Below, piece after piece: positions 4,201-32,804 of a DNA stretch of 64,000 bases. This DNA comes from an uncultured Chloroflexia bacterium (GTDB taxonomy: Bacteria > Chloroflexota > Limnocylindria > Limnocylindrales > CSP1-4). The stretch covers positions 2,106,706 to 2,170,705 of the forward strand of contig CAVONW010000003.1 in the NCBI GenBank assembly GCA_963697415.1. The letters are read 5' to 3'. The notes under the pieces were generated by a model that was not told where the DNA came from, ran no database searches, and saw only the letters and a program-made list of their open reading frames with translations. Position 1 is the stretch's first letter, and every line of letters starts with the position of its first letter. The position numbers and the translations under genes were made by a program.

Positions 4201-5103
4201 CGGGCAACCATGGCGGTCGTGACCCTCGAGGATCTGCAAGGCTCGATCGAGGTCGTGGTGTTCCCCAGGCTCTACGAACAGACCGGTCCGATCTGGGCCG
4301 AAGGCTCGATCCTCCTCGTCGCCGGCCGGGTGGACCATCGGGGCGAGGACGCGTCGCTCCTGGCCGATGTCGTGGTCCCCTGGGACGAGGCAGTCACGAA
4401 GGGCGCGGAGGCGTTTGCGCGTGAGGTTGCCGCCGGTGACCGAGGCTCGTCAAGGCGACGCCAGGGCGCGCCGGCCGCGGAGGGGAGCGGCAACGGCTAC
4501 CGAAGTGGCAATGGGAACGGGAACGCGAATGGAAACGGGAACGGCGCAACGGCCCCGCGGCCTGCGAGTGGTGTGCCCGCGGCCGAGGTGATGGCACGAA
4601 GCACGACGAGTCCGGACCGTCCGTCGCCGGGTCGTCGTCCGGATGTTCCCTACGTGTCACCGCTTCGCGCCGACGCGGCCGCCGTGACCGCTCTCCCGCC
4701 GATCGCCCCGGCGGAACCCATCCCGACCTATCCGCCAACGCTCGAGACCAACGGAGACCCGCGAGATCGGGACGACGAGCCGGCGCTTCCCGATGAGGCG
4801 CGGACGCGGGCCGTGGCTGCGGCGACAGCCGAGACGGTGCCCGTGGAGAACGCGGGCCCCGACCGCATACTTCACGTCCGGTTCGGCGGTGCGCCAGCGG
4901 AGGAGCTGGTCCGCGCGATGAAGACGTTCCGCCAGCTCGTTCGCGAGCGACCGGGCGAGACCCGGGTCATCGTCCACATCCCGGCACCGGGTGGAACGGC
5001 ACTCCCGATGGAGCTGGCACAGACCGTGGCCTACGACGCCGAGCTGTCGGCGGAAGTCACGCGCCAACTTGGCGAAGGAGCCGTGGACCTGCGCCTCGTC
5101 TGA
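1213..5103 (+). CDS. dnaE: DNA polymerase III alpha subunit DnaE (with about 230-aa low-complexity C-terminal extension)
   Basis: The PHP domain begins DFVHLHTHSEFSLLDG, followed by the pol III alpha core, HhH and OB regions; about 1297 aa. Start was moved to GTG 1213, in frame with ORF 952..5103, because the ORF-track N-terminus is non-conserved and proline/arginine-rich. Confidence 0.93.
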   Translation: MSIASNDFVHLHTHSEFSLLDGLGRIPDLVDEAGVQGFDSLAITDHGALHGAVAFYQAAKAKDLKPIIGVETYVARRSMTDKEGKADAQPFHLILLASNEVGYGNLCRLVTDAHLDGYYYKPRIDREHLAKYSEGLVGLSACLNGEVARALEVEDWDLARTLAGEYGDIFGKDRFFLELQDHGLAEQRRLNEQLLRLAPEVGLPLVVTNDLHYVYRKQAAAHDVLLCVGTGNNLDTPGRMKFESDGFYLKSAAEMEALFPDQREALLNTRRIAEMCDLTLPLGQLRIPHFPVPDGETVESWLRKECERGLTWRYGTVTPELQTRLDYELGVILSMGYAGYFLIVADFIRFAREQGIQTTCRGSAPGSIVTYTLGITPVDPIAYGLPFERFLNPDRVTMPDIDVDFQDDRRDEVIAYVSRKYGQDHVAQIITFGTMLARAAIRDVGRVLGHSYGDVDRIAKAVPNQLGIRLDEALQISPALREQVEADEGVKKVIEFARQLEGVARNASTHAAGVVISREPLTELMPLQRATNSEGLMTQYEMHAIEALGLLKFDFLGLSNLTILKNAVDMIRALRGVEIDLDTIPLDDATTFELLASGETTGIFQLESAGMRRYVRELRPTSVFDLAAMVALYRPGPMDNIPAYIRRKHGQEPVTYLHPLLEPFLERTYGIFVYQEDIMAAAIALGGFTGPEADTLGYAIRKKKSSVLRAQKEKFVTQAAERGVPPQTIDAVFKAFEPFERYGFNKAHATCYGLIAYQTAYLKANYTVEYMTSVLSAFRSSEEKVAAAVAECRRLGIEVRPPDIHRSQLEFTVEGDAIRFGLLAVKNVGQGAIESIIAARDADGPFRSLTDFCTRIDLRLSNRKVLESLAKVGAINAFGHPAQILAGLDDATAAAQATQRDQISGQTSLFDMGATDAAVLERPLASTPEAPVRERLRWEKELLGLYLSEHPMGEVADQVGNFVTAYSGDLKDESLDGQRLVLGGIVVASRSVVTRARATMAVVTLEDLQGSIEVVVFPRLYEQTGPIWAEGSILLVAGRVDHRGEDASLLADVVVPWDEAVTKGAEAFAREVAAGDRGSSRRRQGAPAAEGSGNGYRSGNGNGNANGNGNGATAPRPASGVPAAEVMARSTTSPDRPSPGRRPDVPYVSPLRADAAAVTALPPIAPAEPIPTYPPTLETNGDPRDRDDEPALPDEARTRAVAAATAETVPVENAGPDRILHVRFGGAPAEELVRAMKTFRQLVRERPGETRVIVHIPAPGGTALPMELAQTVAYDAELSAEVTRQLGEGAVDLRLV
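4489..4551 (+). repeat. tandem hexanucleotide (aacggg/aatggg) repeat encoding GNGYRSGNGNGNANGNGNGA within the dnaE C-terminal tail
   Basis: Direct reading of 4489-4551: ggcaacggctaccgaagtggcaatgggaacgggaacgcgaatggaaacgggaacggcgcaacg. Confidence 0.5.
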
Positions 5104-5123
5104 GGCGCGCCGCGCTGCCCGGG

Positions 5124-5687
5124 CTAATCCCGCGCGAGTCGTCGGGCAGCGCGAATCAGCGCGAACTGGTCGACATACGCCTCGCGGATGGTGTTGAGCG
5201 TCGGACGATCGACGCCGAGCTCCTTGGCGATCCCGTTGATAACCTGGGCCTCGTCGCTCGAGATCTCGTCGTCCGCAGCGCCGACCGCGAAGCAAGCGCG
5301 CAGGACGGCCAGCTTCTGGGCGTCCGACGCGAACCCTGCGAACTCGCGCGTCACGAGGTAGTCCTCCGTCCCGAACTTCGCCCGCGCCTGGAGCTTGGCC
5401 ATCTGGACCACGAGAACGGCCTGGGCCTCGTCAAGCTCACCGAGCTCGTGGACCGCCGACTCCATCACGGTAGTCTCGTCGTCGCCGATGTCGAGGTCGG
5501 CGTGAGCCGCGCGCGCCAGGATGTAGGCGAACCCGGCCAGGAACCGCGCCCGTTCGACCGGAAGGGAGTCGAGGCGCGCGACGATCCGACGAACGGTCTC
5601 GGTCTCGCCCGCGGCGGAACTAGCCGCAGATCCTTCCGCCACTGGATCGGAGGCGGGCGCCCTGATCAGACGATCGAGGAAGGACAT
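5124..5687 (-). CDS. TerB-family (tellurite-resistance TerB / DjlA N-terminal-like) protein
   Basis: The protein starting MSFLDRLIR... has two TerB-like halves (..ARFLAGFAYILARAAHADLDIGDDE.. and ..LAVLRACFAVGAADDEISSDEAQVINGIAKELG..). The ORF-track 5' extension to 5867 would overlap a tRNA, so the gene was truncated to ATG 5687. Confidence 0.6.
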   Translation of the reverse strand: MSFLDRLIRAPASDPVAEGSAASSAAGETETVRRIVARLDSLPVERARFLAGFAYILARAAHADLDIGDDETTVMESAVHELGELDEAQAVLVVQMAKLQARAKFGTEDYLVTREFAGFASDAQKLAVLRACFAVGAADDEISSDEAQVINGIAKELGVDRPTLNTIREAYVDQFALIRAARRLARD

Positions 5688-23469: not shown

Positions 23470-23609
23470 GCTTGAATCTCTCAGAAGGCGCTTGTCACCT
23501 GCTCACTGCTCGATCATCTGCGAAACACCTGATTTTCACCGCGCGATTGCCATGCCCGCGTGTCACCATGCGGCTCGACGGGCGCGAACGGTTCGGGTAG
23601 GAGAACTGA

Positions 23610-25607
23610 ATGGCGACGCCGGCCATCCTCGAAGTAGCGGCTCACAGTCTCGCCGCGGTCCTGGGGATCTGGTTGGGTCTGACCGTCGTGACCCGCGCGG
23701 CATCTACCGCCTCGCGGGTCTTCGCGCTGCTCTCACTGTCGGTCGCGACGTGGAGCAGCAGCGTTATCGTGCAGCGCCTCTCGATATCGGCAGCCGCCGG
23801 CACGGCCGGCCACTTCATCGAAGAGCTCATGGCGGCCCTCGCGATTGCAGCCACGGCCCATTTCTCTCTGGCGATTGCGTCCGAGGGGTTCCCGACGACT
23901 GGTCGGCGCCGGGTGATCCTGGGCATCTACCTTGCGAACCTCGTGTTCGCTGCGCCGACGATCCTCAAGACGGTCACGGAGCCGCCCCAGCTGACATCCG
24001 AACCGCTGGTGGGGTCACTGTTCTTCTGGGGCTGGGTCGCCGTCCGGCTTGGTGCGCTCGCCACCGGAGCATTCTGGCTGGGACAGGCCTTGCGGGTGGC
24101 GTCGGCCGGCAGCCTGCGGAGTCGTCAACTCCGGGCCGCGCTTGCCACGGTCGCGACCGGGGGTGTCGGCGGAGCAATGCGGTTCATTCCGGTCATCGGC
24201 GACCTTGACGCCTGGATCGGAGTCTCACTCGTGGCCCTTGGCGTGGTGTTCGCGGCGTATGCGGTCTTCTCGGCGGGCATCTTCTTTGGGCCGGCGGTGG
24301 CGGGACGGGCATTCCGGTCGTCACTGGTCGGCGGGTTCGGCCTCTTCCTGGTGCTCGCCATGGTCCTCGGGGTTGAGACGGCGAGCCGCAATGCCACCGG
24401 CCTCGATCTGCCGGTCTTCACGGCGATGGCCCTGATCATGGCGGTCACGCTGCGTGACCCGGTATCCCGGCGACTCCGAGAGCGGCTGAGTGGCGATGGA
24501 CCGCGATCGGCCGCGCGCCGCCGTCTGCTCCTGGCGCTCGGCCAGCCGGGCTTGACCGCACATCCGGCCGAAGCCAGCGTCCTGCCTGCCCTTGACCGGC
24601 TCGCGCGAGCCCTCGATGTTGTCGGTCTCACGGTGGTCCGATCTGATGGCTCGATCGTCGCCACGGAGGGGCTGGGTGGGCGGCTCGGCGGGATCGAGCC
24701 GATTCCGCTCGTGTCGAACGGCGAGCTTCTCGGAGAGCTGAGAATCGGCGATACGGTCACCGGCGCTGCCCTCAGTGCCCACGACGAGGACCTGCTACGA
24801 ATGTCCGCCGCCTACGTCGCCGCTGCTCTCCGAACCGGTCGCCGTGAGGACGAGCAGATGGAACGGCTGGCCACCCTGGCCGCCGAGCGCGCCGCCGTCC
24901 AGTCCCAGGCTGAGACGCTCCACGCCGCCCTCCTCCAGCACGCCGATGCCCCGGCCGGGCTCCGCATCCATGCCCTCGGGCCGCTGCATGTCGAGCGCCT
25001 GGGTCAGTCGATCGAGCGCTGGGGTGGGGACAAGGCAGGCACGCGCCAGGCCCAGGGCCTGTTCGCCTTCCTGTTCGATCGGGGCGAGCGAGGCGTGACC
25101 AAGGACGAAGCGCTCGAGCTGATCTGGCCCGACACGGACATCGAGCGAGCTGACCTGGCCTTCCACCGGACCATGGTCGGCCTCCGCCAGACGCTGGATG
25201 CGCGCCGCGGCGGACGCACAAGCGGGACAATCCGCTTCCACAACGACCGGTATCGGCTGGACCCGGAGATCGTCGAGTGGTCGGATGTGCGGACGTTCCT
25301 GGCCCGGCTGGATGCCGCCAAGGCCGCGCCGGACGCGTCGGAGCGCCTCGCGCTCCTCGAGGAGGCGCGAGAGCTCTACCGCGGCGACTACATGGACGAC
25401 TGCCCGTTCTACGGCGACAGCGTCGAGGTCGAGGAACAGCGCGCGCATCTGCGAGCACGGGCCACGGACCTCCGCGTCGCGATCGGTGAGGCCTACGAGG
25501 CGTCGGGAGATCGGTTGTCCGCTGCCGCGGCCTTCCGGGAGGCGATTCGCGGCAACCCCGACGGATGCCCTCCGGCCGAGGCCGGCCTGGTTCGACTGGG
25601 GCTCTGA
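23610..25607 (+). CDS. membrane-anchored SARP-family regulator: N-terminal polytopic (about 7 TM) domain + central region + OmpR/PhoB-type winged helix + BTAD (bacterial transcriptional activation) domain
   Basis: About 250 aa of hydrophobic helices come first. Then ..LRIHALGPLHVERLGQSIERWGGDKAGTRQAQGLFAFLFDRGERGVTKDEALELIWPD.. is a SARP wHTH. Then ..WSDVRTFLARLDAAKA...LLEEARELYRGDYMDDCPFYGDSVEVEEQRAHLRARATDLRVAIGEAYEASGDRLSAAAAFREAI is the BTAD/TPR-like domain. Confidence 0.7.
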   Translation: MATPAILEVAAHSLAAVLGIWLGLTVVTRAASTASRVFALLSLSVATWSSSVIVQRLSISAAAGTAGHFIEELMAALAIAATAHFSLAIASEGFPTTGRRRVILGIYLANLVFAAPTILKTVTEPPQLTSEPLVGSLFFWGWVAVRLGALATGAFWLGQALRVASAGSLRSRQLRAALATVATGGVGGAMRFIPVIGDLDAWIGVSLVALGVVFAAYAVFSAGIFFGPAVAGRAFRSSLVGGFGLFLVLAMVLGVETASRNATGLDLPVFTAMALIMAVTLRDPVSRRLRERLSGDGPRSAARRRLLLALGQPGLTAHPAEASVLPALDRLARALDVVGLTVVRSDGSIVATEGLGGRLGGIEPIPLVSNGELLGELRIGDTVTGAALSAHDEDLLRMSAAYVAAALRTGRREDEQMERLATLAAERAAVQSQAETLHAALLQHADAPAGLRIHALGPLHVERLGQSIERWGGDKAGTRQAQGLFAFLFDRGERGVTKDEALELIWPDTDIERADLAFHRTMVGLRQTLDARRGGRTSGTIRFHNDRYRLDPEIVEWSDVRTFLARLDAAKAAPDASERLALLEEARELYRGDYMDDCPFYGDSVEVEEQRAHLRARATDLRVAIGEAYEASGDRLSAAAAFREAIRGNPDGCPPAEAGLVRLGL

Positions 25608-25618
25608 GCGGCCCGAGC

Positions 25619-25653
25619 GGCGCCGCAGTGGCGCCGCAGTGGCGCCGCAGTGG
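25619..25653. repeat. three perfect tandem 11-bp direct repeats (GGCGCCGCAGT)x3 + GG, upstream of the ECF sigma gene
   Basis: Read directly: gagcGGCGCCGCAGTGGCGCCGCAGTGGCGCCGCAGTGGtcg. A candidate -10 (CAGATT, 25662-25667) lies about 8-10 bp downstream, and the ECF start is at 25702. Confidence 0.7.
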
Positions 25654-25701
25654 TCGTCTGCCAGATTGCGGGCGTCCATCTCCCGCTCCCGGAGACGATC
25701 G

Positions 25702-26244
25702 ATGTTCAGCAGCGTGATCCAGTACCCGGCACGAGCGCCGCGCTCATCTGCCGCGCAGTTCGTCGATGACGCCCATCGCCAGCACTCGGCGATGACCTAC
25801 GCGGTTGCCATGCGCGCCACGCGGGATCCGGAGGTCGCCGCGGATGTGACGCAGGAGGCGTTCCTCCGGCTGCTCAGCGAGGCGGGCCAGGGTCGCCGTC
25901 CAGACAACGTCGGAGCCTGGCTCTGCCGTGCCGCCATGAACGTCGTGATCAGTCGAGCGCGCCGAGCGACGGTCGCCCGCAGGTACGCGCCCCGACTCCT
26001 CGACCACTCCACGCCCGAGCAGCCCGACACGATCGCCGTGGTCCGAGAGAGCCGCAGTGAACTGGTCGCTGCCCTGGCCGTACTCCGGCCGGCAGAGCGC
26101 ACGGCACTGATCCTCGCGGCGCAGGGTGTCACCGGGCCCGAGATCGCCCGTCACCTCGGACGGACGCACGGCGCCACGCGCGCGCTCATGTGTCGAGCCC
26201 GCACCCGACTCCGTGCCTCGGTCGCTGGAGGTTGCGCGGCCTGA
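25702..26244 (+). CDS. ECF (sigma-70 family) RNA polymerase sigma factor
   Basis: MFSSVIQ..., region 2 (RDPEVAADVTQEAFLRLL) and region 4 (LRPAERTALILAAQGVTGPEIARHLGRTHGATRALMCRARTRLR). GGAG RBS at 25691. The ORF-track entry 25198..26244 is the 5'-extended form overlapping the SARP gene. Confidence 0.75.
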   Translation: MFSSVIQYPARAPRSSAAQFVDDAHRQHSAMTYAVAMRATRDPEVAADVTQEAFLRLLSEAGQGRRPDNVGAWLCRAAMNVVISRARRATVARRYAPRLLDHSTPEQPDTIAVVRESRSELVAALAVLRPAERTALILAAQGVTGPEIARHLGRTHGATRALMCRARTRLRASVAGGCAA

Positions 26245-26472
26245 GGCGGTCCGGCGTTCGCCAAGACGACCAGCGTGCCTCTGGGTTCAGAAGGCAGATG
26301 GCCCGGACAACCTCGCCCCGTTCGGCACGCCCGACTGGACCTGGAAGCGCGAGGGCGGTCAGCTCCAACTGTTCATGGATGAAGCACCTCGCCTCCTGGG
26401 CCTGGAGACGACGTCGCCGCGATTGCGACAGCGTCACGCCTGACTCGTCACTCCCCGCCGTAGGATTGCGGC

Positions 26473-28374
26473 GTGCCCCAGACCCTCCCCACGGCCCTCG
26501 CTGCGACCCTCAAGAACCTGCCCGATCGGCCGGGCGTGTACCTGATGAAGGACGCGCGCGGGAACGTGATCTACGTCGGCAAGGCCCAGAGCTTGCGGAG
26601 CCGTGTTCGGAGCTACTGGCAGAAGGAGGCGCCCGGGGGCGAGATCCACCGGATCCGGAGCGTCATCGACAAGGTCGCCGACCTCGAATACACCCTGACC
26701 GACTCGATCTCCGAGGCTCTCCTCCTCGAGGGCAACCTCATCAAACGGTTCCAACCGTCGTTCAACGTGCGCCTCAAGGACGACAAGTCCTACCCGTACA
26801 TCAAGGTCACACTGGCCGACGACTTCCCACGCATCGAGCGCACCCGCAAGCTGCCGCAGGACGGCAGCCGCTACTTCGGGCCGTACGCGTCGGCGTCCAG
26901 TGTGGACGAGGCGATGAACCTGGTCCGCCGGCTCTTCCCGTTCCGGACCTGCGCCATCGACATCAAGGATGGCGAGCGGGCCCTCCAGCGTCCGTGCCTC
27001 CTGTATCACATCAAGCGCTGCCAGGGCCCGTGCATCGAGGCCGTGACGAAGGACACCTACCGCGCCGACATCGCGCAGGTGGAACTCTTTCTGGAGGGCC
27101 GCCAGGAGTCCGTCGCGGACGCGCTGCGCCACGAGATGTCCCAAGCCTCCGAACGGATGGACTACGAGCGTGCCGCGGCCATTAGGGACAAGGTCCGGGC
27201 CATCGAACGGACGATGGAGAGCCAGAAGATGGCCGCCTTCGCCCGGACGGATCTCGATCTCGTCGGTCTCGCCCGGCAGGACAATCAGGCGGCGGTACAG
27301 CTGTTCGTCATCCGCGACGGCAAGGCCGTCGGGCGCGACGTCTTCATGCTGGCGTCCCCGCGCGACACGACGGATGAGGAAGTCCTTTCCGGCTTTCTGC
27401 TCCAGTACTACGCCCGTGCGACGAACGTTCCGCGCGAGGTTGCGGTCCCGCGTCAGCTCCAAGACGCCGAGGATCTGGAGCGCTTCCTGACGGACCGCCG
27501 GGCCGCGATCGCAACCACCACGGGCGGCGGCGCCCGAAAGACCGCCGCGGTCCGCCTCCACGCCCCCCGGCGGGGCGAGCGGCGGGCGCTCATGACCCTC
27601 GCGACCCGCAACGCAGCCGAGATGCTCGCGCGCGAGCAGGTTCGGTGGCTCGCCGACCAGGGCAAGACGCTCGGCGCACTGGAGGAGCTCGCCGCGGCCC
27701 TCGAGCTGCCGGTCCTGCCGGAACGGATCGAGTGCTACGACATCTCGACATTCCAGGGCACGAACAGCGTGGGCAGCATGGTCGTGTTCGAGGACGGCCG
27801 GCCGCGGACGGGCGAGTACCGTCGTTTCGAGATCAAGACCGTCCAGGGCCAGAGCGACGTGGCGAGCCACCAGGAGGTCCTCCGGCGCCGGTTCAGGAAC
27901 GCCAAGCTGGGCGAGGAGGGGAGTGCCGAGGAACGGCGCTGGGCGATGCCCGATTTGGTGATCGTCGACGGCGGCCGGGCCCAGGTCGGCGCGGCGAAGA
28001 TCGTCCTCGACGAGCTCGGCCTGCACGATCTTCCCTTGGCCGGACTGGCCAAGGAGCGCGAGGAGCTGGTCCTGTCGGGCCGCGCGGAGCCGGTCCTGCT
28101 GCCCACCACATCACAGGCGCTGTACCTGGTCCAGAGGCTTCGGGACGAGGCCCACCGCTTCGCGATCACCTACCACCGCAAGCTGCGGGCACGGGCGTCC
28201 GTGCGCTCGGCCTTCGACGACCTGCCCGGTATCGGGCCGCGGCGGCGCGCCGTCCTGCTCCGGACCTTCGGTTCGGTGAAGCGGATTCGCGAAGCTCCGC
28301 TTGAGCAGATTGCTGCGCTGCCGGGCATCGGACCGGCGCTTGCGGCGCGGATCAAGGACGGCCTGGAAGCCTGA
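26473..28374 (+). CDS. uvrC: excinuclease ABC subunit C (UvrC)
   Basis: GIY-YIG (PGVYLMKDARGNVIYVGKAQSLRSRVRSY), UVR domain, RNaseH-like endonuclease domain and C-terminal HhH. Confidence 0.93.
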   Translation: MPQTLPTALAATLKNLPDRPGVYLMKDARGNVIYVGKAQSLRSRVRSYWQKEAPGGEIHRIRSVIDKVADLEYTLTDSISEALLLEGNLIKRFQPSFNVRLKDDKSYPYIKVTLADDFPRIERTRKLPQDGSRYFGPYASASSVDEAMNLVRRLFPFRTCAIDIKDGERALQRPCLLYHIKRCQGPCIEAVTKDTYRADIAQVELFLEGRQESVADALRHEMSQASERMDYERAAAIRDKVRAIERTMESQKMAAFARTDLDLVGLARQDNQAAVQLFVIRDGKAVGRDVFMLASPRDTTDEEVLSGFLLQYYARATNVPREVAVPRQLQDAEDLERFLTDRRAAIATTTGGGARKTAAVRLHAPRRGERRALMTLATRNAAEMLAREQVRWLADQGKTLGALEELAAALELPVLPERIECYDISTFQGTNSVGSMVVFEDGRPRTGEYRRFEIKTVQGQSDVASHQEVLRRRFRNAKLGEEGSAEERRWAMPDLVIVDGGRAQVGAAKIVLDELGLHDLPLAGLAKEREELVLSGRAEPVLLPTTSQALYLVQRLRDEAHRFAITYHRKLRARASVRSAFDDLPGIGPRRRAVLLRTFGSVKRIREAPLEQIAALPGIGPALAARIKDGLEA

Positions 28375-30980: not shown

Positions 30981-32804
30981 GTGCTCCTCCCGCGGGCCCG
31001 CTGGGTCTTTCCAGAACCGACCTCGCCGACTCCCGATCTCCTCGACGCCGTGGCCGCGCTCGGGCTGGGTCCATGGGCAGCCGCCATCCTGATGCGCCGT
31101 GGCGTGACGGACGTGGCGGACCTGGCGCGGCACTTCGGAGAGCCTCGTGACGGCCTGCATGATCCGGTCCTACTGCCGGACGCCGAGGTCTTCCTCGCCC
31201 GGATCCGGCGTGCCCGGGACGTCGGGGAGACCGTGCTCGTCTTCGGGGACTTCGATGCGGACGGGATCACCGGCCTCGCCATCCTGACCATCGCCCTGCG
31301 CGCCTGTGGCGTCACGGTGGTCCCGTACGTGCCGTCGCGCCTGGAGGAGGGCCACGGGCTCTCGCTCGCGGCGGTGGACACCGCTGCGCGGGACGGCGCC
31401 CGGGTCATCGTCACGGTGGACACCGGCACAACGAGCGTGGCGGAGGTCGCGGCCGCGCGAGCGCGGGGCATCGATGTCCTGATCACTGATCACCATCGCG
31501 TCCCGGCGGACCTGCCCGCCGCCGTTGCGATCGTCAACGCCCATCGGCCAGACAGCCGCTATCCGGACCGGCGCCTGTCCGGGGCGGGGATCGCCTTCGC
31601 CCTGGCGCGACTGCTGCTCGAGGACGCTCCCGAGGCCCTTGCGCTGGCTGACCTCGCCGCGATCGGGACGGTCGCCGATGTGGCGCCGATCCTCGGCGAG
31701 AACCGGGCGATCGTGAGACTCGGTCTGGCGGCCATCCAGGCCGGCGCTCGACCCGGTATCGCCGCACTCCTGGCACGCGCCAACGTCGTGCCTGCGGCGG
31801 TGGATGTCGAATCCCTGTCCTTCGCCATCGCACCGCGCCTGAACGCGGCCGGCAGGGTGGGGGAGGCGATGGACGCCGCTCGGCTGCTGCTGGCCGCAAG
31901 CGCGGAGGAGGCGGCATCGCTGGCGGCGACGCTCGAGTCGGCGAACCTGGAGCGTCGCGACCTGACGAAGCAGGCGGTCGCCGACGCCCGGGTTTCGCCG
32001 GACGCCGTGGATGGCGCCGCCGCGACGATTGTCCGGGGCCCGTGGCCGGTCGGGGTCGTGGGACTCGTTGCCGCCCGCCTGGCCGAGGAACGCGGCCGGC
32101 CCGCCATCGTGGGTGCTGACCTGGGCGCCGTCGTCCGGGCCTCCTGTCGCGGAGACGGGTCGCTGCATCTGGCGGATACCCTCGCCGCGTGTGATGACCT
32201 GCTGATCAGGCACGGCGGGCACGCCGGCGCTGCCGGGTTCGAGATTGCAGCGGACGATTGGCCGGCGTTCCGGGATCGGTTCCTTGGGCTGGCCGCGATC
32301 ACGGACCCGCGGGACGCCGAGCCCGTTCTCAAGATCGATCTCGCCCTTGCCGCCGCAGACATTGACTACCAGCTGCACCGGGACCTCGTGCGCCTTGGAC
32401 CCTGGGGCACCGGCAACCCGGAGCCGGTCGTCGCTGTGACGGGGCTGACCGTGACTCGTGCCCGTGAGGCAAGTGGCGGCCACACGCAACTGGTCCTGAA
32501 GCGTCGGCTCGATGTCCTCGACGGCATCGCGTTCGGGTGGCCCGAATTGGCGACGCAAGTTGCCGAGGGTGATCGCGTGGACGTCGCGGCGAGGCTTGTG
32601 AGTCGTCGATTCGGTGGCGTGGAGTCGCTCCAGCTCGATATCCGCGACGTTGCGCAATCCGGCCATTACTCCCCGACGGCGGCGATCCATCCGAGCGCGC
32701 CCGTGGCGGTGGGCCCCGGCCTGCCCACCGTGGACCCCGGCCTGTCGGCGGTGGGCCCCGGCCTGCCGGTCGTGGCGTCAATCCCCGGGGAATCAGAGCC
32801 GTGA
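30981..32804 (+). CDS. recJ: single-stranded-DNA-specific exonuclease RecJ
   Basis: DHH motifs (VLVFGDFDADGITG, VIVTVDTGT, DVLITDHHRV), DHHA1 (GGHAGAAG), and OB-like C-terminus. The C-terminal tail contains a GPGLP x3 repeat. Confidence 0.85.
   Translation: MLLPRARWVFPEPTSPTPDLLDAVAALGLGPWAAAILMRRGVTDVADLARHFGEPRDGLHDPVLLPDAEVFLARIRRARDVGETVLVFGDFDADGITGLAILTIALRACGVTVVPYVPSRLEEGHGLSLAAVDTAARDGARVIVTVDTGTTSVAEVAAARARGIDVLITDHHRVPADLPAAVAIVNAHRPDSRYPDRRLSGAGIAFALARLLLEDAPEALALADLAAIGTVADVAPILGENRAIVRLGLAAIQAGARPGIAALLARANVVPAAVDVESLSFAIAPRLNAAGRVGEAMDAARLLLAASAEEAASLAATLESANLERRDLTKQAVADARVSPDAVDGAAATIVRGPWPVGVVGLVAARLAEERGRPAIVGADLGAVVRASCRGDGSLHLADTLAACDDLLIRHGGHAGAAGFEIAADDWPAFRDRFLGLAAITDPRDAEPVLKIDLALAAADIDYQLHRDLVRLGPWGTGNPEPVVAVTGLTVTRAREASGGHTQLVLKRRLDVLDGIAFGWPELATQVAEGDRVDVAARLVSRRFGGVESLQLDIRDVAQSGHYSPTAAIHPSAPVAVGPGLPTVDPGLSAVGPGLPVVASIPGESEP

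Follow-up and report, generated by a model that had tools for sequence, protein, structure and literature searches.

Analysis of a 64,000-nt stretch of contig CAVONW010000003.1 from an uncultured Chloroflexia bacterium (hereafter the window) identified a gene for a 665-aa polytopic membrane protein that ends in a SARP-type DNA-binding module, followed by an array of short direct repeats and by the gene for a sigma factor of the extracytoplasmic function (ECF) type. The protein, here termed the regulator, is probably a membrane-anchored one-component SARP-type activator that drives a sigmaA-type promoter of the ECF sigma gene, one which lacks a -35 element. The domain content of the regulator, the conservation and geometry of the array, and the linkage of regulator, array and sigma gene were shown in silico. 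An initial annotation of the window, made from its sequence without database searches, had proposed direct activation of the sigma gene by a membrane SARP, an interpretation that was supported in silico by the present analysis.

Repeat array and promoter geometry

The spacer between the regulator and sigma genes is 94 nt in length, with the array beginning 15 nt past the regulator stop codon. The three perfect 11-bp repeats that had been noted at 25619-25653 in the initial annotation were confirmed with Tandem Repeats Finder (period 11, 3.2 copies, 100% identity), their score of 70 being the second-highest in the window; the top-scoring tandem repeat is situated at 32705-32775 (period 21, 3.4 copies, 76% matches, score 93). 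By our estimate, 24 consecutive self-matching bases at period 11 have a probability of less than 1e-8 of arising by chance in 64 kb. A looser pattern of two heptamers with one mismatch was found twice in the window against 1.95 occurrences expected, and is alone not significant. Each repeat carries the heptamer CCGCAGT, and a degenerate heptamer precedes the first of these in register (Table 1).

The -10-like hexamer CAGATT, which had been put forward as lying some 8-10 bp past the repeats, was found 10 nt after the last full heptamer and 8 nt past the end of the partial fourth repeat unit. No sigma70-type -35/-10 pair or intrinsic terminator was predicted in 25300-26500. A terminator or attenuator explanation of the repeats was rejected, there being no inverted repeat or terminator-like site. 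The predicted transcription start would give a leader of 28 nt that includes the GGAG sequence before the sigma gene.

Comparison was extended to 110 related loci (identified below by L numbers), in which 40 distinct arrays were found, 37 of them containing at least three repeats. Two to four copies of CCGCAG[T/G], arranged as direct repeats and spaced 11 nt (occasionally 22 nt) apart, were found to adjoin the gene in most loci with a regulator at least 55% identical, as well as in some loci where identity of the regulator is approximately 44%, with most orthologs having four repeats. Exact CCGCAG-N5-CCGCAG pairs in 1.5 Mb of related loci were mostly located inside arrays. The 4-nt spacers vary freely, reading TTGCG, TCGCG or TGGCG in L032, L033 and L102 (approximately 86-88% identical) versus three times GGCG in the window, and the perfect 11-mer identity of the window was not found in its closest relatives. 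This variability of the spacers indicates that the conserved unit is the heptamer. The initial annotation was therefore right in regarding the array as conserved, but not in its choice of the 11-mer as the functional unit, which is a 7-bp core.

Anchored on the last heptamer, the consensus of the arrays was [CCGCAGT-N4]x3-4, N10, CAnGGT. A hexamer of the form NANNNT was present exactly 10 nt past the last heptamer in 37/37 arrays and in 0/37 at offsets 4-9 and 11-16, the background being 2.7%, and no recognisable -35 was identified in the arrays. The conservation of the repeats in orthologous loci, on which the initial annotation had made its interpretation depend, was thereby established.

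SARPs are known to bind direct repeats that lie close by the -10, 11 or 22 bp apart, and overlap the -35, the 3' repeat being 8 bp away from the -10 (PMC10936776). Once bound, the SARP dimer takes the place of the -35 contact and brings in RNA polymerase (PMC10936776; also PMC10972967), and the afsS promoter possesses a poor -35 and a -10 of CACTGT (PMC10936776). The predicted operator described here resembles those of the SARPs (AfsR, ActII-ORF4, DnrI, RedD, and EmbR of M. tuberculosis) in its heptameric repeats with an 11-bp period, its three to four copies, its weak -10 and its absence of a -35. It is because the logic of the array is the same as that of SARP promoters that the SARP module of the regulator is proposed to bind the heptamers and to activate transcription.

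A TCAAC or TCAAG motif was identified downstream of the hexamer in 23 of the 37 arrays, mostly in those before sigma genes. This could point to autoregulation, with the ECF sigma factor itself reading the array promoter, the heptamers or TCAAC serving as ECF elements, and the SARP-like protein assisting or being irrelevant. Many ECF sigma genes are autoregulated. Autoregulation has also been inferred from conserved upstream motifs in a reclassification of ECF sigma factors (PMC7826278). However, the same heptamer and -10 geometry is found before non-sigma genes in the absence of TCAAC, and the TCAAC motif lies downstream of the hexamer, at or after the predicted start. Furthermore, the heptamers are unlike the AAC-type -35 elements of ECF sigma factors, for which three to four tandem copies would be atypical. 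Autoregulation was judged to be quite improbable overall, being unlikely by way of the heptamers and possible by way of the TCAAC motif.

Linkage of the array to the regulator and sigma genes

An ortholog of the ECF sigma factor (42-90% identity) was found directly behind the array in three gene orders. These were a tandem order in which the regulator is followed by the array and then by the sigma gene (as in the window, in L001-5 and L032-44, and in others), a divergent order with the array between the sigma and regulator genes (L049, L052), and a separated order in which array and sigma gene are found on either strand at 1-2 kb from the regulator (L038, L055, L058, L069, L077, L103). In L031, the closest metagenomic relative (89% identity), approximately 270 nt are inserted after the regulator stop codon (4998-5275), with the array staying 62 nt from the sigma homology. 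The arrays remain no more than a few kb distant from the regulator gene. They were also found to follow the regulator where the next element is a small membrane protein, secreted proteins preceding the sigma factor, an alpha/beta hydrolase-like protein or a leader without an open reading frame (ORF). The divergent and separated orders rule out that the repeats are a mere feature of the 3' untranslated region of the regulator gene, or that the sigma factor is expressed by read-through alone.

The same comparison bears on whether the repeats could result from neutral replication slippage (as a micro-variable number tandem repeat, VNTR), with the sigma gene simply co-transcribed with the gene upstream. 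Three perfectly identical 11-mers are typical of recent slippage or conversion, and no terminator was identified between the two genes. However, the heptamer and its 11-nt phase are kept in 40 distinct loci with differing spacers, down to a regulator identity of approximately 44%; the -10-like hexamer is found at a constant distance; and arrays persist in the divergent and separated orders, where such co-transcription is impossible. Neutral slippage or a VNTR origin is effectively refuted by this comparative conservation, and such an account of the locus is scarcely credible.

Another reading of the array is as the operator of a different, unlinked regulator of the OmpR/PhoB family, for example a response regulator, with the gene of the membrane SARP-like protein just happening to lie beside it. 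The pho boxes of PhoB are 7-bp direct repeats with 4-bp spacers that stand in for the -35 and end 10 bp upstream of the -10, a promoter geometry identical to that of the array, and binding of the array by the SARP-like protein is a prediction. Against this stands that the arrays accompany the 7TM-SARP gene irrespective of which gene comes next, and the sigma gene through three orders. Moreover, no response-regulator gene is conserved nearby, the flanks in the window consisting of a UvrD-like helicase, a methyltransferase and uvrC, and the invariant recognition helix of the regulator matches the invariant heptamer. Because of this three-way linkage an unlinked PhoB/OmpR-type regulator is less likely and was considered improbable. 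The regulator itself differs from response regulators of this type in having no receiver domain or partner kinase, and its signal input would be intramolecular.

Two arrays each were found in L055, L058, L064, L066, L069 and L077, one before the sigma gene and one before the gene of a small polytopic membrane protein, and L048 has two arrays on the minus strand. In other loci (L004, L035, L073, L080), genes for signal-peptide proteins are situated between the array and the sigma gene. These paired arrays and intervening genes suggest a small envelope-related regulon. The regulator probably heads such a small regulon and does not control the sigma gene only, because the same operator-promoter cassette precedes other genes in relatives.

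A conserved leader of approximately 250 nt without a convincing ORF was observed after the array promoter in L045 (4150-4400), L051 (5075-5350), L059, L060, L062, L070, L071 and L081. It contains GATCTGGGG..GGGATC and GGGTCGCGCGAC..GAGGGGAGTCGCGCGG. A search of the leaders of L045, L051, L059 and L060 against Rfam identified no family, the only match being to an unrelated tRNA. The leader may represent either an RNA or a tiny ORF, regulated in the SARP manner.

Many orthologs were found to share TGGACG-N17/18-(TG)CCAAGATGCC approximately 60-150 nt upstream of the regulator start (L041, L048, L049, L052, L055, L064, L069, L073 and others). This arrangement, TGGACG-N17/18-CAAGAT, resembles an ordinary sigmaA promoter with a -35. 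It illustrates the form of a non-activated promoter in this lineage and indicates that CAnnnT is plausibly usable there as a -10. The TGGACG motif is not present in that form in 23470-23609 of the window, and the upstream regions of the window, L031 and L032 are different and AT-richer.

The regulator might also bind the array as a repressor or roadblock, occluding the sigma promoter or stopping read-through until a signal releases it. The array does cover the region that RNA polymerase must occupy and, being 15 nt past a stop codon with no predicted terminator, it has read-through to block. However, a strictly phased -10 (37/37) in the absence of a -35 is a hallmark of activator-dependent promoters, and the regulator's own promoter in relatives does possess a -35. 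The divergent arrangements leave no read-through to block, and the SARPs with a BTAD that have been described to date act as activators (PMC10972967, PMC10936776). A repressing role was considered unlikely, and activation of the sigma gene by the membrane-anchored regulator is the interpretation followed below.

Domain architecture of the regulator

More than 550 full-length homologs of the regulator were found, each of 660-690 aa, indicating that it is not a fusion artefact. The named family members all belong to Chloroflexota or "Candidatus Limnocylindrales" metagenome-assembled genomes (MAGs). Databases already annotate family members as "SARP family transcriptional activator", and the SARP domain assignment itself is thus not new.

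Domain matches were counted in a panel of 33 family members (55-87% identity). The bacterial transcriptional activator domain (BTAD) was matched in 20 of these (best E-value 9.3e-11), and Pfam Trans_reg_C in one, which was not the window protein; this rare detection of Trans_reg_C marks the regulator as a divergent member of the SARPs. When the C-terminal 215 aa of the window protein were scanned alone, BTAD was matched with 22.3 bits (cut-off 22.1) over profile positions 2-87 of 146. A profile search of the C-terminal 220 aa against the PDB returned AfsR first (E-value 4.5e-6), aligned over AfsR residues 25-204, from the winged helix-turn-helix (wHTH) through half of the BTA domain. Of the profile searches, it took the C-terminal one to detect AfsR, and this also gave a weak match to the wHTH of ToxR. 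A Foldseek search of 350,542 chains with the AlphaFold model placed AfsR (8k60) and EmbR (2ff4, 2fez) in the first four ranks. Sequence matching gave weak evidence of the wHTH and BTAD that define the SARP family, with better evidence coming from the profile and the fold.

The recognition helix (approximately residues 515-527) has the sequence DLAFHRTMVGLRQ, in which F518, H519, R520, T521, L525 and R526 are invariant in the 33 members. In the Chloroflexales MAGs L006-L023 its AFHRT motif is kept without downstream CCGCAG arrays, and in L020 and L023 an ECF sigma gene is located just upstream on the same strand.

The N-terminal membrane domain was found to be polytopic by hydropathy and AlphaFold, as stated in the initial annotation, but to comprise approximately 285 aa with 8-9 segments and not approximately 250 aa with 7. 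The AlphaFold model of the full protein (mean predicted local distance difference test score of 71) places the N-terminal helices at residues 3-293. The K/R-rich loops at residues 98-101, 156-176 and 286-305 place everything past residue 286, and with it the C-terminal half, in the cytoplasm. HisKA_7TM (PF16927) was matched in 24 of the 33 members (best E-value 1.2e-9), but not in the window protein at E<=0.1, for which hydropathy and AlphaFold point to 8-9 helices where the Pfam model expects seven. Weak 7TM (G protein-coupled receptor/rhodopsin) matches to the N-terminal part were returned by Foldseek, ranked after AfsR and EmbR.

HisKA_7TM has been described as a sensor module of histidine kinases (PMC5847659). 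The regulator resembles these kinases through the PF16927 match of the membrane domain in most family members, but differs in that its output is a DNA-binding SARP module in place of a kinase core. Among 1.84 billion cluster representatives, approximately 130 relatives of the sensor half were found (50%-cluster level), every full-length one having the same architecture, and no kinase-fused close relatives were identified.

The central region, to which no function had initially been assigned, was found to consist of a small GAF-like alpha/beta unit followed by a long helix. The unit comprises a helix, four strands and a helix in the AlphaFold model, approximately 70 aa in all. GAF was below threshold in the window protein (E-value 0.05), and GAF_2, GAF_3 or GAF was weakly matched in 9 of the 33 members. 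A PDB profile search with the full-length alignment returned only TPR designs and weak matches to the GAF structures 2zmf and 2vzw. The long helix that follows is modelled as a single element and is likely to be a dimerising signalling helix, with residues 441-459 forming a low-confidence linker.

Table 1. Positions of the regulator gene, its domains, the repeat array, the sigma gene and neighbouring genes in the window
Feature	Position	Strand	Basis or remark
PEMT/ICMT-like membrane methyltransferase, 162 aa	21361-21849	-	upstream neighbour
Short UvrD/PcrA-like helicase, 536 aa	21859-23469	-	upstream of regulator; syntenic in L001-L003
Regulator gene, 665 aa (polytopic membrane, GAF-like, SARP-type wHTH and BTAD)	23610-25607	+	ORF, homologs, domain content; stop codon included
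Membrane sensor region, residues 1-285, 8-9 hydrophobic helices, HisKA_7TM-related	23610-24464	+	hydropathy, AlphaFold, family Pfam
Small alpha/beta GAF-like domain, residues ~320-389	24567-24776	+	weak GAF matches, AlphaFold
Single long helix linking sensor to DNA-binding module, residues 390-444	24777-24941	+	AlphaFold helix H390-444
OmpR-type wHTH, residues ~450-550	24957-25259	+	AfsR profile alignment, Foldseek
BTAD, residues ~555-665	25272-25604	+	shorter than Pfam model
Degenerate heptamer CCCGAGC (repeat 0)	25612-25618	+	11 nt before first perfect heptamer, in register
Heptamer 1, CCGCAGT	25623-25629	+	
Heptamer 2, CCGCAGT	25634-25640	+	
Heptamer 3, CCGCAGT	25645-25651	+	promoter-proximal
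-10-like hexamer CAGATT	25662-25667	+	no -35 consensus
Predicted transcription start (within 1-2 nt)	25674	+	from -10 position only, 7 nt past hexamer
ECF sigma factor gene, 180 aa, no sigma3 region, no extension	25702-26244	+	ATG start, GGAG at 25691-25694
uvrC	26473-28374		

Proposed control of the sigma factor

The sigma protein was assigned to the ECF type on the basis of Sigma70_r2 (E-value 3.1e-10) and Sigma70_r4_2 (E-value 2.2e-7) with no r3, and of a score of 57.1 for TIGR02937 (ECF; cut-off 42.9). The source's own gene call gives the identical 180-aa protein. As had been stated initially, no anti-sigma gene follows and uvrC is next, 228 nt past the sigma gene with no conserved gene between. 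No anti-sigma gene was found to be conserved after the sigma gene among the window and the orthologs, ORFs under 90 aa not having been searched for. The genes after the sigma gene differ even in the closest relatives (a 5'-nucleotidase-like gene, a toxin-antitoxin pair, S21 and others), which makes the lack of an adjacent anti-sigma gene a property of the group, ORFs under 90 aa aside.

In several relatives (L001 6776-8680, L003 6952 onward, L032 5686 onward), the sigma gene and uvrC have a 5'-nucleotidase/metallophosphoesterase-like gene between them, of which there is none in 26245-26472 of the window. L102 and L033 instead carry a Phd/VapC-like toxin-antitoxin pair behind the sigma gene. 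With the helicase upstream and uvrC downstream, the regulator-sigma pair is located within a DNA-repair neighbourhood.

In the proposed mechanism, the polytopic sensor and GAF-like domain would be coupled via the long helix to the cytoplasmic C-terminal wHTH and BTAD. A membrane or envelope signal would control the regulator, which may act either while anchored in the membrane or once released from it. The CCGCAG[T/G] heptamers, one helical turn apart, would be bound head-to-tail by three to four protomers; they cover the -35 and spacer positions of a promoter whose -10, CAGATT, is weak and which lacks a -35. The bound regulator would, like AfsR, make up for the missing -35 contact and bring in the housekeeping RNA polymerase, presumably as the sigmaA holoenzyme. 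The outcome would be activation rather than repression, with transcription beginning near the predicted start and leading to production of the ECF sigma factor. The sigma factor would be controlled mainly by the amount made, as there is no adjacent anti-sigma partner.

A number of observations weigh against this mechanism. A Pfam and NCBIfam scan of the whole window protein identified neither Trans_reg_C nor BTAD at threshold, an outcome that, read to the letter, the initial annotation had named as refuting, and the C-terminal wHTH and BTAD claimed in the initial annotation were upheld by the AfsR profile, the fold and the family-wide BTAD matches, but not by these thresholds. The agreement between the fragment scan, the family-wide matches, the PDB profile and the fold search indicates that this failure is an issue of sensitivity. 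The Foldseek alignments had a root-mean-square deviation of approximately 13.5 Å and low TM-scores, due to the model being weak at residues 445-480 and in domain arrangement, and thus support the fold class rather than the detail. In small and large SARPs the module is N-terminal, with extra domains C-terminal to it (PMC10936776), but that of the regulator is situated at residues ~450-665, behind the membrane and GAF-like domains. With 8-9 transmembrane helices, the target DNA must come to the membrane or the protein must be cleaved.

The match to SARP operators drawn in the initial annotation holds for the 11-nt period and the absence of a -35, but the distance from the heptamer end (as delimited here) to the -10 is 10 bp versus the 8 bp quoted for SARPs. 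The location of the array 15 nt past the stop codon, with no predicted terminator, means that the sigma gene could also be co-transcribed by read-through. A single array was found in the 64-kb window and no further ones. Full-length homologs from Chloroflexales (30-34% identity) had no exact 7-mer repeats at a spacing of approximately 10-12 or 21-22 nt in the 260 nt after the gene.

The regulator shares with the SARPs an OmpR-type wHTH followed by a BTAD. It differs from them, besides the position of the module behind a polytopic sensor and GAF-like domain, in occurring in Chloroflexota and not in Actinobacteria, in its heptamer CCGCAGK, and in its low sequence similarity, with Trans_reg_C essentially undetected and BTAD partial. 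Its predicted targets are an ECF sigma factor and a few envelope or secreted-protein genes in place of an antibiotic cluster. ToxR, TcpP and CadC likewise combine, in one polypeptide, a membrane sensor with an OmpR-type wHTH that acts on DNA at the membrane. In ToxR and CadC a cytoplasmic wHTH at the N-terminus is joined by one transmembrane helix to a sensor domain in the periplasm, whereas the regulator shows the opposite order, an anchor of 8-9 helices and, in addition, a BTAD, which sets it outside the ToxR/CadC type.

ECF groups without canonical regulators have been described, some of them linked to transcription factors (PMC7826278). The sigma factor of the window resembles transcriptionally controlled ECF sigma factors in having no C-terminal extension, no adjacent anti-sigma gene and a conserved adjoining regulator, and differs in that it is linked to a membrane SARP-type activator with an identifiable predicted operator. 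A term search of the ECF reclassification (PMC7826278) found TetR, LysR and MerR neighbours named and no mention of BTAD. No description of a membrane-bound SARP, a HisKA_7TM-SARP fusion or a SARP-controlled ECF sigma factor was found in the searchable literature, which is absence of evidence only.

It can be proposed, tentatively, that this is how a clade of Chloroflexota signals from the envelope to an ECF sigma factor without an anti-sigma factor. A membrane-embedded polytopic SARP would, at the membrane and through three to four phased sites, activate the -35-less promoter of the sigma gene and of a few envelope genes, a generalisation that is possible but doubtful. In AfsR complexes the BTAD contacts sigma region 4, and as a further possibility within this proposal the BTAD of the regulator might also work with the ECF holoenzyme, resulting in positive feedback.

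Comparative support for the predicted operator and its geometry is unusually strong. The 37 independent arrays resolve this operator, together with its phase and the -10, to single bases, making the regulon predictable with a simple pattern, and the soluble C-terminal domain together with the operator is a candidate orthogonal activator part. SARPs are usually treated as soluble, actinobacterial switches for antibiotic clusters. If the proposed mechanism is true, the SARP mode of action, in which phased heptamers replace the -35, would be extended to another phylum, to a membrane-sensor architecture and to a new class of target. The regulator would then represent a new combination of sensor and output and a new mode of ECF control, in which ECF sigma factors without an anti-sigma factor are controlled by a linked membrane one-component activator.

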